Part shown: positions 40,521 through 45,512 of the stretch, one piece after another
How positions within the stretch are numbered: the first letter of the stretch is position 1
Layout: every line of letters begins with the position of its first letter
Origin: Cyanobacteriota bacterium
GTDB taxonomy: Bacteria > Cyanobacteriota > Cyanobacteriia > Cyanobacteriales > Nostocaceae
DNA: 64,000 bases
Direction of reading: 5' to 3'
Assembly (NCBI GenBank): GCA_046045965.1
Contig: JBJOKS010000022.1
Span: 1 to 64,000, forward strand
Notes under the pieces: generated by a model
Database searches by the model: none
Seen by the model: the letters and a program-made list of their open reading frames with translations, nothing else
What the model was told of the DNA's origin: nothing
Translations under genes and position numbers: made by a program

Positions 40521-41951
40521 ATGACACTACAAAGCTTTGGTGTGATTGGATTAGCCGTTATGGGCGAGAATATCGCTCTCAACGTTGAGCGCAATGGCTT
40601 CCCAATTGCAGTTTACAACCGTTCTCGCGAGAAAACCGATGCCTTCATGGCGCAACGCGCTGGAGGACGGAATGTGGTTGCAGCCTTTACCTTAGAAGAA
40701 TTCGTTGCTGCACTAGAACGTCCCCGCAAAATTCTAGTGATGGTACAAGCTGGTAAGCCTGTTGATGCGGTAATTCAACAGCTTAAGCCTTTACTGCAAG
40801 AGGGTGACATCATTATTGATGGTGGTAACTCTTGGTTTGAAGATACCGAAAGACGGACTCAGGAATTAGAACCCACAGGTTTACGCTACATCGGTATGGG
40901 TGTGAGTGGTGGTGAAGAAGGTGCGCTGAATGGTCCTTCTTTGATGCCTGGTGGTACAAAAAGTTCCTATGAGTACCTATCCCCCATTTTCAACAAAATC
41001 GCTGCTCAAGTTGATGATGGTCCTTGTGTAACTTACATTGGTCCGGGTGGTTCTGGACACTATGTAAAAATGGTTCACAACGGCATTGAGTACGGCGATA
41101 TGCAGTTAATTGCAGAAGCCTACGATTTGCTGAAAAATGTCGGTGGTTTAAATGCTGCACAGCTACATGAAGTATTTGCTGAGTGGAATAAAACCGACGA
41201 ACTCAATTCATTTTTGATTGAGATTACAGCCAATATTTTCCCCTACGTTGACCCAGAAACTAAGAAACCCTTGGTTGATTTGATTGTTGACGCTGCGGGA
41301 CAAAAAGGCACCGGTCGTTGGACTGTACAAACTGCTTTGGAATTAGGCGTTGCTATTCCTACAATTACTGCTGCTGTTAATTCCCGGATTCTCTCTTCGA
41401 TTAGAGATGAACGGATTGCAGCATCTAAACAATTAACTGGTCCTGTTCCTGCTCAGTTTAAGGATACTAAGACTTTCGTGAACATGGTGCGTGATGCACT
41501 TTATTGTTCCAAAATCTGTTCTTATGCTCAAGGTATGGCGTTGATATCTACAGCTTCTACCACCTATAATTGGGGTCTAAATCTGGGTGAAATGGCTCGA
41601 ATTTGGAAGGGTGGTTGTATTATTCGCGCTGGTTTCTTGAACAAGATTAAGAAGGCGTTTGACGAAAATCCAGCATTACCTAACTTGTTGTTAGCACCTG
41701 AATTTAAGCAAACAATTCTGGATAGACAAGCTGCTTGGCGGGAAATAATTGTGACTGCTGCTAAGATGGGTATTCCTGTTCCAGCTTTTAGTGCTTCTCT
41801 TGATTATTTCGATAGCTACCGTCGGGAACGTTTACCTCAAAACTTGACTCAAGCACAACGCGACTATTTCGGCGCTCACACCTACAAACGTACTGATAAA
41901 GAAGGAACTTTCCACACTGAATGGGTTCCTATCGCTGAAGCTAAGAAGTAA
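40521..41951 (+). CDS. gndA: NADP-dependent 6-phosphogluconate dehydrogenase
   Basis: GLAVMG, KMVHNGIEY, GQKGTGRW, QAQRDYFGAHTY. Confidence 0.98.
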   Translation: MTLQSFGVIGLAVMGENIALNVERNGFPIAVYNRSREKTDAFMAQRAGGRNVVAAFTLEEFVAALERPRKILVMVQAGKPVDAVIQQLKPLLQEGDIIIDGGNSWFEDTERRTQELEPTGLRYIGMGVSGGEEGALNGPSLMPGGTKSSYEYLSPIFNKIAAQVDDGPCVTYIGPGGSGHYVKMVHNGIEYGDMQLIAEAYDLLKNVGGLNAAQLHEVFAEWNKTDELNSFLIEITANIFPYVDPETKKPLVDLIVDAAGQKGTGRWTVQTALELGVAIPTITAAVNSRILSSIRDERIAASKQLTGPVPAQFKDTKTFVNMVRDALYCSKICSYAQGMALISTASTTYNWGLNLGEMARIWKGGCIIRAGFLNKIKKAFDENPALPNLLLAPEFKQTILDRQAAWREIIVTAAKMGIPVPAFSASLDYFDSYRRERLPQNLTQAQRDYFGAHTYKRTDKEGTFHTEWVPIAEAKK

Positions 41952-42009
41952 ATTGCATCTGGTTAAGCTTTCAAGTTAGTTCTTGCTGTTTATTTTGGCA
42001 AAATTGCCT

Positions 42010-42033
42010 GTAGGGGCGGGGTTTACCCGCCCT
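42010..42033. repeat. GTAG-type REP-like palindrome
   Basis: gtaggggcggggtttacccgccct. Confidence 0.6.
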
Positions 42034-42050
42034 TAATTGTAAGATATTTA

Positions 42051-42080
42051 TTGAATTTAGCTCAAAAGCTATGCTATAAT
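42051..42080 (+). promoter_or_regulatory. Strong sigma70-type promoter with extended -10
   Basis: TTGAAT-N18-TATAAT with TGn before the -10; no credible ORF directly downstream. Confidence 0.65.
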
Positions 42081-42097
42081 TTTCAAAAAAATATCAT

Positions 42098-42379
42098 GCG
42101 GGGATAGCAGGTGTCTATGCTTTCCCAAAAGCTTCGTAATAAAGGTTCTTCTGGAAGTTTTCAATGGCTGTTCAACAGTGCAAGAGTTGTCCTCTTTCTT
42201 CGTGAACATTAAGGATAGTCTTATGATTGCACCTGTTATATACGTTATTGTCGGTTCATGCGGGGTAGCGTTGCTGCGGAGGTCTGGTGACTACCCAAAT
42301 GTACTGAAAGCAGTGCTGGAAGCTAAAAGAAATTCCTGTCGAAGAGTCAACGCTGGGGGTTCGATTCCTCCACCCCGCA
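42098..42379 (+). ncRNA. Unidentified structured RNA with a 3' tRNA-like domain (42260-42379)
   Basis: Acceptor stem GCGGGGT/ACCCCGC+A, T arm GGGGG-TTCGATT-CCTCC, helix AGCGTTG/CAACGCT; 5' domain closed by ATAGCAGGTG/CACCTGTTAT. Confidence 0.65.
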
Positions 42380-42587
42380 CTTTCCATAACATACCTGTAA
42401 AATAGAAGGTTGGGCTAACTAAAGTAAAACCAATAACCTTGCAAGAATGATTAAATACGTTAGAATAAGAGATGTATTGCGATATTTAACAATAGTGAAA
42501 TACATATATAAGGTAAAATAATTAAGCAACAATAGCAATAATATTGTCATTAAAAATCAAAAATGATCTCATAAACATAAAAAAGCT

Positions 42588-44039
42588 ATGTATATACGAA
42601 AAATTGAAATTAAAAATCTGTGGGGAAATGATTTTTTATGGACACTCAATGAAGATGTAAATGTTTTGATTGGCAAAAATGGTTCAGGAAAATCAACAAT
42701 ATTACGAATGCTTCATGAAGCAGTATTGCCTGTTGAAGATAGCAAATTAAACTTTAGGTTATTTGACCCCATTGATGAAATAATTATCGAGTTAGAAGAT
42801 GATATTGTCGTCAGAGTTAATAGTGAAAGTAGAAGTATAACGGCAAACAAAGAAATTACTAATTATAAACTGAATATAAACTTTATTAATACTTTTGATG
42901 TCGTTGAAAACGGGTTAAGCTCAGATACCACATTACTTGACTACCAACTTAATAAATTAAAATACGAGTTTGTTACTTATCAAAGAGATTTATCTAATCA
43001 AGTAGAGGAAGAATTTAAAATTAATTTTAAAACAAATAATATTAATGATCAAGCATCAAGAAAAAATCAATTAGATAAAATTGAATCTATCTATGAAACT
43101 AAAAATAAATTCATTAAGATATTAAATCAACTATTTTCTGAGACAGAAAAGAAATTTGATGAAAAGGAATTTCATTTTTTAAAAGAAGGCATACAAACAC
43201 CCATATTACCAGAGGATTTATCATCTGGAGAAAAACAGATATTGATTATTTTATTAACAACATTACTTCAAGATGCCAAAGATTATATATTGTTAATGGA
43301 TGAACCAGAAATATCCGTGCATATTGATTGGCAAAGGAGTTTAATAGCAAATATAAGAGAGATAAATCCAAATTGTCAAATTATTCTTACCACTCATTCA
43401 CCGACTGTTTGGTATCAAGGTTGGATTGAAGAAGTTACGCACATAGAAGATATTCAGTCAACTTCAGATTTAGTAACAGAAAGTACAATTCTCAAAGAAA
43501 AAACTGATCAATTAGGAGAGCGTGTAGAAGAAATAAAAGATATTTTTAGTGGCTTTTCAGGCAACAATTTACGTAAACTTTATCAATTTAATCGCAAAAT
43601 TAATGAATATACTTTATTTACAAAAGATGAATGCCTTCAATTGTTGAAATTTCTAAAAGAAAACAAGATTTATCCTGATGTCATCACATTTACTACTCTT
43701 ATTTCCAAACTCACTAATTATCAAGATGCTAAAGATATTTTCGATTTAATGGAAGCAGAAACTTATAGTAAATCATCTCATGTCAAGCCTAATGATATAA
43801 CTCTTAATACTTTGATCAAAAAAGTCAGTGGAGTTGAAGAAGGTATTGAACTTATTCAAAACATAAATGAAAACATGGAATTGCGTCCTGATATTATCAC
43901 TTTTAGCACGTTGCTTGGGAAAGCAAGAAATATGGATGAGATTACATTTCTTGAAGATGCACGAACTTACTATGGAATTAAAGCAAATAATATATACTTA
44001 AATAAATTAGCTTTTAAGGGGTTTCAGGGAGGACGATAA
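42588..44039 (+). CDS. ABC/AAA_21 ATPase (PARIS AriA-like) with C-terminal PPR-like repeats
   Basis: GKNGSGKS, LSSGE, LLMDEPE, TTHSP; repeats PDVITFTTLI, PNDITLNTLI, PDIITFSTLL. Confidence 0.85.
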   Translation: MYIRKIEIKNLWGNDFLWTLNEDVNVLIGKNGSGKSTILRMLHEAVLPVEDSKLNFRLFDPIDEIIIELEDDIVVRVNSESRSITANKEITNYKLNINFINTFDVVENGLSSDTTLLDYQLNKLKYEFVTYQRDLSNQVEEEFKINFKTNNINDQASRKNQLDKIESIYETKNKFIKILNQLFSETEKKFDEKEFHFLKEGIQTPILPEDLSSGEKQILIILLTTLLQDAKDYILLMDEPEISVHIDWQRSLIANIREINPNCQIILTTHSPTVWYQGWIEEVTHIEDIQSTSDLVTESTILKEKTDQLGERVEEIKDIFSGFSGNNLRKLYQFNRKINEYTLFTKDECLQLLKFLKENKIYPDVITFTTLISKLTNYQDAKDIFDLMEAETYSKSSHVKPNDITLNTLIKKVSGVEEGIELIQNINENMELRPDIITFSTLLGKARNMDEITFLEDARTYYGIKANNIYLNKLAFKGFQGGR

Positions 44040-44042
44040 GTA

Positions 44043-45044
44043 ATGAATTTGTATGAAGTAGCTGCCCAAAGAATGCAAGAAGAAGCTCGCTAAAAAAGGT
44101 GTGAAATTTCTGTATTGGTTGAAGATGTTTATGATGAAGAATTTTGGAGACTTATTATTGAAAATGTTAAACCGAATTTAAGAAATAAAATTTATTTCCC
44201 ATATCCCAGTAAGAAAGGAACACGCGGAAAAGATACTTTAAAAAAGTTTAGAGAGTTCGTTAATAAAAAATTTATTATTTGTATTGATAGTGATTGCGAA
44301 TACTTGTACGATAATAATGTTTGGTATATCGCTGACTATATTTACCATACAGTTGTTTATAGTAAAGAAAACTTTCAGTGTAATCATTTTTCATTAAATG
44401 AAATATGCAAAAGTTTAACCACAGAAAACTATGATTTTAGCAGTTTACTTGAAAATATTTCCCGAAGAGTTTCTCCTCTATTTTACGTTTGGTTCTACTT
44501 TAAAGAAATCAACTACAATAATGTTGAGCATCTTATAAATAATGAAGCATTTGCAAGAATTTTAAATTTTCAAGATAGTCAATTCGACAATATTGGAGAT
44601 GAAAATATCTTATTTCAAAATATTGAAGATAGAGTGAAAAATATATTACAAAATCTAAAAAATGTCATGGACAATGATAGTTGGTATGAATCAATATTTA
44701 CAATTGATATTCCTAATATACAAAATCGGTTAATAGAACAATACTCAATACATCCAGAAGATATTTTATCATTTTGCTGTGGACATGGTGTATTAGACCA
44801 ATTTGTTGAACCTTTTATGAGAAAACTCATTACAATATTAAAGAATTTAAAAATAGAAGAAGTAAAACAGGCTTTAAGTGAAGACAAAAATATTGATAAC
44901 ACAATTAGTCGTATCGAAAATATTGCCAGACGAGACATTAAGACTATGTTAAACACCAGTTTAATATATCTCCTTCTTTATAATGCTGTCGAAAATCAAC
45001 AGATGCAAGAAATTAAAGACAAACTAGCTAGAGAACTGAACTAG
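44043..45044 (+). pseudogene. DUF4435/TOPRIM nuclease (PARIS AriB-like) interrupted by an in-frame TAA at 44091
   Basis: ATG 44043 after GGAGG, in frame with ORF 44115; VLVED..D, IDSD, YSKEN motifs. Confidence 0.72.
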
Positions 45045-45257: not shown

Positions 45258-45512
45258 ATGCTGAAAAAGATTAATTCTATAATCTCCAAAAATACTGAAA
45301 TTTTTCAAAAAATAACAGATGAACAAGCAGCTTTTATTAGTGGTGGTATGGAGATACCTGTAGCTCCTGATATACCTTCTATACCTTATGATGTTGGTGA
45401 GCTAACACCTCAAATTCCTAATCTTCCTAATCTTCCGGTTGATCTGCTTAATTCTGTTCCTACTACTTTTCCACTTGATATGAGTTCTTTTGGAGTTCCC
45501 GTAACTGTTTAA
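45258..45512 (+). CDS. Small protein with a double-glycine-type leader and Pro-rich core
   Basis: FQKITDEQAAFISGG followed by a Pro/acidic core; has its own terminator. Confidence 0.7.
   Translation: MLKKINSIISKNTEIFQKITDEQAAFISGGMEIPVAPDIPSIPYDVGELTPQIPNLPNLPVDLLNSVPTTFPLDMSSFGVPVTV

Follow-up and report, generated by a model that had tools for sequence, protein, structure and literature searches.

What does a domain of pentatricopeptide repeats (PPRs), the RNA-binding repeats of plant organelle proteins, recognise when it is fused to an ATPase of bacterial phage defence? The question is raised by a locus in a 64,000-nucleotide stretch of cyanobacterial DNA from the Nostocaceae (positions 1 to 64,000 of contig JBJOKS010000022.1, assembly GCA_046045965.1), which is called the window below. 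The ariA-PPR gene (42588..44039, forward strand) is followed by ariB (44043..45044, forward strand), and the two resemble the PARIS defence system. A model that had only the letters and open reading frames (ORFs) of the window, here called the sequence-only reading, proposed that the repeats bind single-stranded RNA by the code of plant PPR proteins. The identity and fold of the domain, its conservation within a family, and the pairing of the two genes are established here. The PPR domain of AriA may recognise a conserved single-stranded RNA or tRNA feature, which is the candidate ligand, with a probability of roughly 0.45.

A PPR domain on an AriA-type ATPase

The ariA-PPR gene is intact and encodes 483 residues. 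Residues 1-295 (42588..43472, forward strand) are confirmed as an AriA-type ABC ATPase domain, which belongs to the AAA_15/AAA_21 type and keeps its nucleotide motifs intact; a two-helix coiled-coil insert spans residues 116-184, as delimited by Pfam and the helices of an AlphaFold2 (AF2) model. The PADLOC model of AriA (PDLC04164) matched residues 2-290 with an E-value of 6e-52, and the Pfam families AAA_21 (residues 24-273) and AAA_15 matched with E-values of 1e-24 and 1.3e-17. The Walker A residues G29, N31, G32, G34, and K35, the signature-motif residues S212, G214, E215, K216, and Q217, the Walker B residues D238 and E239, and the H-loop histidine H270 show no variation among 53 family members. 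The AF2 model of the full-length protein has a mean local confidence (pLDDT) of 86.9 and a predicted template modelling (TM) score (pTM) of 0.78. When it was searched with Foldseek, the Escherichia coli AriA chains 8v45, 8v46, and 8ux9 ranked at the top (E-values 5e-12 to 3e-10), ahead of PtuA chains from Septu and retrons. The attribution of the repeats to an AriA-like ATPase by the sequence-only reading is borne out by the PADLOC and Foldseek matches, together with a sequence match to AriA in the PDB (4.6e-15). Pfam models of the STAND class reached E-values of only 0.11-0.18, short of the cut-off, and the NTPase of ariA-PPR is an ABC ATPase, not one of the STAND class as in Avs proteins.

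PARIS of E. coli B185 (8ux9, 8v45-8v49) has the same arrangement of an AAA_15/21 ABC ATPase followed on one strand by a DUF4435/Toprim nuclease, and PADLOC names both components AriA and AriB. In contrast, its AriA (464 residues) lacks a PPR domain and has a longer coiled-coil insert. The sequence similarity between the two AriA proteins is limited to residues 160-275, and E. coli AriA superimposes on the full-length model with TM scores of 0.37-0.43 on the query and 0.47-0.60 on the target.

Residues 327-477 (43566..44018, forward strand) constitute the PPR domain of 4.5 helical hairpins, as delimited by Pfam, PDB sequence matching, AF2, Foldseek, and VIA-align. The earlier description of four tandem motifs of 32-38 residues with a partial fifth at 43578-44010, equivalent to residues 331-474 of the ORF 42588..44039, holds. 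The repeats, all on the forward strand, are formed by residues 331-364 (repeat 1, 34 residues, 43578..43679), 365-402 (repeat 2, 38 residues, 43680..43793), 403-435 (repeat 3, 33 residues, 43794..43892), and 436-467 (repeat 4, 32 residues, 43893..43988), the last of which is the most conserved. Half repeat 5 (residues 468-477, 43989..44018) comprises helix a only, which AF2 places at residues 468-476, and carries N472. Repeat 2 has a lengthened loop connecting its helix b to repeat 3, and its register was taken from the alignment with a designer PPR protein. This alignment, to PDB entry 6een, fixes the register of position 5 and of the last residue of the repeats. The resulting pairs are N335/D364, T369/N402, N407/D435, and S440/N467, the same N/D, T/N, N/D, and S/N as read previously.

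Three Pfam families exceed their curated cut-offs by small margins, PPR_2 with 31.9 bits (cut-off 30), PPR_3 with 29.8 bits (25), and PPR_1 with 28.3 bits (23.8). A PDB sequence search with residues 318-483 (P0001) matched the designer PPR 6een with an E-value of 1.7e-60, the best single stretch reaching 8.1e-11. The AF2 model of the domain alone, calculated from a 56-row alignment, has a pLDDT of 93.0, a pTM of 0.87, and nine helices corresponding to the 4.5 hairpins. Ranks 1-35 of a Foldseek search of the PDB with the domain were all PPR proteins (E-values 1.1e-4 to 3.6e-2, TM scores 0.41-0.62). Similarly, PPR or PPR-like chains occupied nearly all of ranks 1-27 of a VIA-align comparison with 48,161 chains (Z-scores 13.8-7.5) and all of the top five (13.8-13.0); the RNA-bound designer PPR 5i9d scored 13.1 and PPR10 10.1. 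The highest TPR-type chain was at rank 28 with a Z-score of 7.4, and no TPR family was among the 18 Pfam families that matched the ariA-PPR product at E ≤ 1, so that a TPR-type fold was rejected. The predicted structure is a PPR solenoid and not a TPR or HEAT fold. Residues 331-477 are confirmed as a true PPR homologue with the PPR fold, having the tandem motifs of about 35 residues, the profile match, the helix-turn-helix solenoid, and the polar residues at code positions that mark members of the PPR family.

In common with P-class and designer PPRs (6een, 5i9d/5i9f, and PPR10, 4m59), the domain has the motif register, repeats of two helices, a solenoid fold, and polar residues at both position 5 and the last position. 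It differs from them in having only 4.5 repeats of 32-38 residues, a shortened turn between helices a and b, a bacterial host, a fusion to a defence ATPase, and RNA binding that is predicted only.

Protein-only RNase P (PRORP) recognises tRNA by its shape. The PPR domain of PRORP1 with bound tRNA (6lvr) ties with the best fold matches (Z-score 13.2 over 147 residues; Foldseek TM score 0.60), and the entry 4g23 scored 11.7. Both PRORP1, in one chain, and the ariA-PPR pair, in two, combine a small PPR domain with a nuclease, the action of which on tRNA is predicted in the case of the pair, and the number of repeats is similar to the five of the PRORP domain. The AriA domain may thus bind tRNA by shape and either present the substrate to AriB, since AriB of PARIS is described as cleaving tRNA, or monitor tRNA, which would be RNA binding free of the code. 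However, the sequence identity to PRORP1 is 14%, versus 27-30% to designer PPRs that use the code. The code-type residues are conserved in the ariA-PPR family, and E. coli AriB acts once it has been released from AriA (Burman 2024). Shape-based tRNA binding is improbable on this evidence.

A clade of AriA proteins and its PPR relatives

The ariA-PPR fusion is a conserved family of 101 protein clusters. A word-indexed search with residues 318-483 identified 109 proteins at E ≤ 1e-3 among 534 candidates. The first 101 of these (P0002-P0102) carry ABC-ATPase Pfam domains and are mostly 460-485 residues long, and the last eight are PPR-only proteins, two of them from plants. The 80 best loci were taken from a search of contigs representing one genome per species, and the match includes the PPR domain in 21 of them (L001-L021). 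Judged by record titles and the origin labels of the tree, these loci belong to five phyla and come from Nostocales, Oscillatoriales-type cyanobacteria, Desulfobacterales, Thiomargarita, a metagenome-assembled genome of Pseudomonadota, Cytophagales, Saprospiraceae, and Bacteroidia. In the remaining 59 loci, mostly from Bacteroidales, the match is limited to residues 2-289 or slightly beyond. The ORFs of these ATPase-only loci have 263-357 residues, except for four of 611-641 residues that continue into AriB, and the PPR-bearing relatives have 448-505. Of the 21 PPR loci, 19 have an AriB relative immediately downstream, and the other two (L006 and L017) lie on contigs that end too early; an AriB relative also follows in 49 of the 59 ATPase-only loci.

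A quick maximum-likelihood tree of the ATPase alone was calculated from 78 rows with SH-like approximate likelihood-ratio (SH-aLRT) support, after filters had dropped L004, L006, and L019. The 19 PPR-bearing rows all fall to the same side of a branch with a support of 72, and the set of 22 rows composed of them and three short ones has a support of 96. The phyla are mixed inside the PPR group, and the tree fits a single gain of the PPR domain followed by horizontal spread. The PPR domain is a clade-specific addition to AriA, given the position of the PPR rows in the tree and the shortness of the nearest ATPase-only relatives. The source genome contains one copy of the domain, and among 60 of its relatives the domain was found in four. 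All four are among the 36 relatives from the family, one of them being among the three from the genus, and none was found among the 24 from other families of the order. A search of the source genome with the Pfam profile PF13041 returned zero matches and is uninformative, as it missed ariA-PPR itself and its controls were silent. The region of 42-46 kb has a G+C content of 30%, versus 32-42% in the 6 kb flanking it on each side.

Two further observations concern this set of loci. By record titles, and with no statistics behind the pattern, PPR-bearing AriA (L001-L021) occurs mainly in filamentous, gliding, or giant bacteria, such as Nostocales, Microcoleus, Tychonema, Thiomargarita, the Desulfobacterales HSG2, Saprospiraceae, and Cytophagales. 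The four loci in which a short AriA ORF is continuous with AriB (L022, L031, L049, and L077; 611-641 residues) are either recent fusions or the result of frameshift or stop differences; three of them adjoin near-identical two-gene loci (L025, L052, and L045) in the ATPase tree.

The PPR domain has relatives in other bacterial proteins. An exhaustive HMMER search of 1.84 billion representatives with the domain yielded 1341 proteins at E ≤ 1e-3, 215 at 1e-10, and 10 at 1e-30. The statement that PPR proteins are rare in bacteria is therefore only roughly right, as several of the best of these 1341 are arrays fused to SIR2 or TIR. Among the 14 hits that were scanned with Pfam, the best from outside the family are long arrays of 4-12 matched stretches with SIR2_2 (P0111, P0112) or TIR_2 (P0113, P0115) domains, and P0117 has a long PPR array behind a weak nSTAND3 match. 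These arrays are the closest relatives of the domain, with 30-37% identity and E-values of 4.5e-66 to 1.2e-35 summed over 4-8 stretches. PADLOC recognised only their SIR2 and TIR heads, and no Avs model matched. The arrays share with the ariA-PPR domain the repeat subtype, units of mostly 32 residues, and a defence context, and their architecture is that of bacterial NLR-like defence proteins. Whereas they are long and one has a weak STAND match, the domain studied here is short, fixed, and carried by an ABC ATPase. Its likeness to Avs and other STAND proteins is confined to the resemblance of the PPR domain to their sensor arrays, since no STAND NTPase lies between effector and sensor.

These nearest relatives suggest that the PPR domain could be a protein sensor, in which the binding of a phage protein triggers the release of AriB, as in the C-terminal arrays of STAND and Avs proteins. 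The C-terminal repeat (sensor) domain of PaAvs5-3, which is likened to ariA-PPR by description and not by sequence, is predicted to contain PPRs, and the phage protein JADA is reported to activate all three tested Avs5 clades (Muralidharan 2026, PMC12931631). The AriA subunit of E. coli PARIS likewise is described as sensing a protein, Ocr. However, direct JADA binding is reported for PaAvs5-1 (TPR/Sel1) only and not for the PPR-type PaAvs5-3, which also protects from the single-stranded RNA phage PP7 (Muralidharan 2026, PMC12931631). A sensor in an arms race should diversify, whereas the conservation of the PPR domain is close to that of the ATPase (0.48 versus 0.46 among the 20 members with less than 50% identity), and the residues presumed to face the ligand hardly vary in the 21 loci from five phyla. 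The pore residues of E. coli AriA, in contrast, are poorly conserved (Burman 2024). So high a conservation speaks against a protein sensor shaped by an arms race, and we consider protein sensing unlikely.

The fusion was not found described in the literature on AriA, AriB, DUF4435, or anti-phage systems with pentatricopeptide repeats, and "PPR" occurs 0 times in the main text of Burman 2024. HNH nucleases associated with PPR domains are mentioned in a paper on SPARHA. Database records display PPR Pfam domains on entries named "AAA family ATPase", where the fusion is visible and unremarked. The parts are known, and the combination is apparently not described in the searchable literature.

Code residues and the candidate RNA ligand

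The residues at the code positions are conserved in the 53 family members, whose identities go down to 28-39%. N335 and D364 of repeat 1 are present in 52 and 50 members, T369 and N402 of repeat 2 each in 47, N407 and D435 of repeat 3 in 50 and 49, and S440 and N467 of repeat 4 in 51 and 47; N472 of the half repeat is kept in 39. The exact quartet of pairs is retained in 36 of the 53. In the 20 members below 50% identity, the eight code positions rank 1, 13, 13, 21, 21, 21, 28, and 34 in conservation among 152 columns. Lysines on or near helix a are similarly conserved, namely K374 (45/53), K411 and K412 (50/53 each), K445 (53/53), K473 (51/53), and K477 (48/53). K374, K412, K445, and K477 are at or near repeat position 10, and K412 aligns with the lysine of the "KAG" turn of designer PPRs. 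In designer PPRs, the lysine of this turn contacts phosphate. A divergent subgroup of the family (P0229, P0236, and P0242) has other code pairs, for example NN, NN, HD, and YD, and could bind a different ligand.

Each repeat keeps its own pair across the family, which supports a specific conserved ligand, and conservation equal to that of the ATPase fits a ligand that is constant. In the designer protein dPPR-U10 (5i9f; U10 target), every repeat shown in the alignment combines N at position 5 with a final D, like repeats 1 and 3, so that a reading of U by N/D is consistent with this entry. The T/N and S/N pairs read A in the PPR code. The conservation of code residues across phyla thus hints at RNA recognition and falls short of proof.

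The sequence-only reading went further and took the fact that all four pairs are canonical as pointing to RNA binding. That argument fails when the pairs of related repeats are counted. A hidden Markov model of 35 columns, built from the repeats of the family, was run on 139 PPR hits from outside it and gave 113 full repeats from 55 proteins; 408 of the 521 aligned pieces were incomplete at either end and were left out. Position 5 was N in 55, S in 29, T in 26, and G in 3 of the full repeats, N, S, and T being interchangeable, and the last position was N in 66 and D in 47. A lysine at position 10, shared with the ariA-PPR domain, is present in 78. A canonical pair (ND, NN, NS, TD, TN, or SN) is carried by 89% of the 113 repeats, and four of four canonical pairs have a chance of about 0.63, or some 63% by default, and are therefore no evidence of RNA binding. 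The repeats themselves lie far beyond chance, and the four canonical pairs do not.

The most conserved part of the domain offers a different explanation. P434, F439, K445, E456, and R459 in the region of repeat 4 are invariant in the 53 members, Y470, K473, and L474 of the half repeat are invariant or nearly so, and E456, R459, and Y461, all invariant or nearly so, are located on the outer helix b of repeat 4. The domain could have a structural or regulatory role, in AriA oligomerisation, autoinhibition of the ATPase, or an additional contact to AriB, and bind no external ligand. Strong conservation fits a constant partner, and the pTM of the full-length prediction suggests a defined arrangement of domains. 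The coiled-coil insert is short and has two helices, versus the four-helix interface bundle described for E. coli AriA, and an extra surface for oligomerisation may be needed. However, the nearest relatives, of 263-357 residues and with AriB adjoining in most, work as a pair without a PPR domain. AriB has retained an N-terminal extension of 23-29 residues where the docking helix of the E. coli protein is reported to sit, so that a new dock is not needed, and the fixed polar N, S, or T and D or N of each repeat would be left unexplained. A structural or regulatory role is unlikely.

Recognition of a single-stranded RNA or tRNA feature would fit the following mechanism. The two genes, ariA and then ariB, would form a PARIS-type abortive-infection module. 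By homology with E. coli PARIS, AriA oligomers would keep the Toprim nuclease AriB inactive until a trigger sensed by AriA frees it, and the released AriB would cut tRNA and stop translation. In the PPR clade, where the ATPase core is minimal, the PPR domain would be the module that recognises the ligand. The helix-a face would contact the RNA through N, T, or S at position 5, D or N at the last position, and the ladder of conserved lysines, and several PPR domains per oligomer could provide avidity. The plant code assigns U-A-U-A to the four full repeats, although this exact sequence is a weak prediction. The PARIS literature describes effectors that act on RNA, with AriB cleaving tRNA, and gives the AriA hexamer, the sequestration and triggered release of AriB, tRNA cleavage, and phage defence for E. 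coli B185 only. We infer the oligomer, the RNA ligand, the use of the code, and tRNA cleavage for the present clade.

Several observations weigh against an RNA ligand. The net charge of the domain is approximately neutral (+1; family median +2, range -10 to +11), and 4.5 repeats allow a specificity of 4-5 nucleotides at most. Canonical pairs are the default state of this type of repeat. The conservation of E456, R459, and Y461 suggests that the outer face touches a protein. Furthermore, the one published defence protein with PPR-type sensor repeats, PaAvs5-3, is reported to be activated by a phage protein, and the loci have no conserved RNA partner in common. The neutral charge and the short array, together with the Avs5 precedent, argue against RNA. 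The probability given above for recognition of single-stranded RNA or a tRNA feature takes these points into account as part of the weighing; about a third of it belongs to shape-based tRNA binding of the PRORP kind and somewhat less than half to literal use of the code. It is doubtful that the PARIS complex uses the plant-type PPR code as a sensor, in which several PPR domains of the AriA oligomer read a U-A-U-A-pyrimidine motif on a conserved RNA or tRNA of phage or host and so gate the release of AriB.

The sequence-only reading had also cited, as weak evidence, a UAUA at 42237-42240, in an RNA upstream of ariA. At about 42098-42385 (forward strand) lies a discrete, abundant RNA of about 280 nucleotides, which forms a separate contig in two RNA libraries. 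Its 3' end resembles the T-arm and acceptor of a tRNA, and a promoter-like site precedes it by about 10-40 nucleotides. In RNA run X3, a contig of 42105-42377 has a word depth of 700, and adapter sequence abuts 42105; in run X1, the word depth of this RNA is 70.7, versus 2-5 for ariA. Gaps in the contig cover of ariA and ariB in these runs do not mean that the genes are silent, and low-depth cover of them may stem from DNA. The X3 sequence 3' of 42380 differs from the window, and the 3' end of the RNA may border a variable region. ARAGORN and Rfam identified no tRNA, tmRNA, or known RNA family in 38-50 kb or 41900-42650. An origin of the element as a tmRNA or an integration scar was rejected, as the real tmRNA is on another contig and has no similarity to it.

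The RNA is single-copy in the genome and conserved in three relatives at 94%, 82%, and 74% identity, in differing gene neighbourhoods. At one PPR locus (L001), a 427-bp stretch that includes the RNA is missing before ariA, and in the relatives with 82% and 74% identity (G049 and G009), in whose genomes the PPR domain had no match, the RNA is located beside unrelated genes. The RNA thus has a distribution of its own and was rejected as an obligatory ligand or partner of the system. The tetramer is uninformative as well, as TATA occurs 292 times on the forward strand of the window (4.6 per kb) and five times in the 636-nucleotide upstream region (41952-42587). PtuA and PtuB of retron-Eco7 (Ec78) are likewise an ABC ATPase-nuclease pair, described as held by nucleic acid and degrading tRNA, and PtuA is among the fold and sequence matches. 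In contrast, retron-Eco7 is controlled by its msDNA (multicopy single-stranded DNA) and reverse transcriptase, and neither a reverse transcriptase nor a non-coding RNA is conserved beside the ariA-PPR family.

AriB in the source strain and the meaning of the fusion

The start codon of ariB (ATG 44043) is 3 nucleotides past the ariA stop on the same strand, and its product is a DUF4435/Toprim-type nuclease (Pfam DUF4435 1.8e-15; PADLOC AriB 9.1e-24). Alignment of the junction with relatives revealed an in-frame TAA at codon 17 (44091..44093, forward strand), where the four closest relatives have CAA, CAG, CAC, or CAT. Among 20 copies, only that of the window carries the stop, and the frame is intact in the 19 relatives. 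The remaining ORF of 309 residues, from TTG 44115, lacks the N-terminal stretch. It retains the acidic residues E3, D7, D58, D60, and E85. Across 16 sequences these residues are fully or almost fully conserved, and their spacing is like that of E26, D30, D88, E90, and E122 reported for E. coli AriB; the correspondence between the two sets is presumed. All 19 AriB relatives of the PPR clade start 23-29 codons ahead of the catalytic glutamate, and the first helix of E. coli AriB is described as anchoring the protein by docking at the head-head interface of AriA (Deep et al. preprint). Because of the stop and the lost N-terminal stretch, the PARIS system may be inactive in the source strain, or the assembly may carry an error at 44091-44093; the RNA runs contain no identical-sequence cover of these positions. 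PDB sequence searches with AriB and with a profile of its family gave zero hits. A complex prediction of the PPR domain with AriB, for which the AriB alignment was used without the N-terminal 23-29 residues, scored 0.00 and speaks neither for nor against a contact. Downstream of ariB, an ORF of 84 residues (45258-45512, forward strand) has an N-terminal third that ends in a double glycine like a bacteriocin-type leader, and it has no Pfam match.

E. coli PARIS senses a phage protein through the coiled-coils of AriA. A domain of the RNA-reader type would, if its proposed function is true, add nucleic-acid sensing or the handling of tRNA to such a system. The fusion adds to the evidence, beside the arrays fused to SIR2, TIR, and STAND domains, that PPR repeats function in bacterial immunity, and PPR-bearing defence proteins bear on the origin of the eukaryotic PPR family. 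A natural PPR module that is this short, keeps its code residues fixed, and sits on a presumably oligomeric scaffold is easily tested. If the doubtful case of a code-based sensor proved true, it would be the first natural prokaryotic immune sensor that works by modular PPR-RNA recognition, and the PPR code would be older than eukaryotic organelles or would have evolved outside them.

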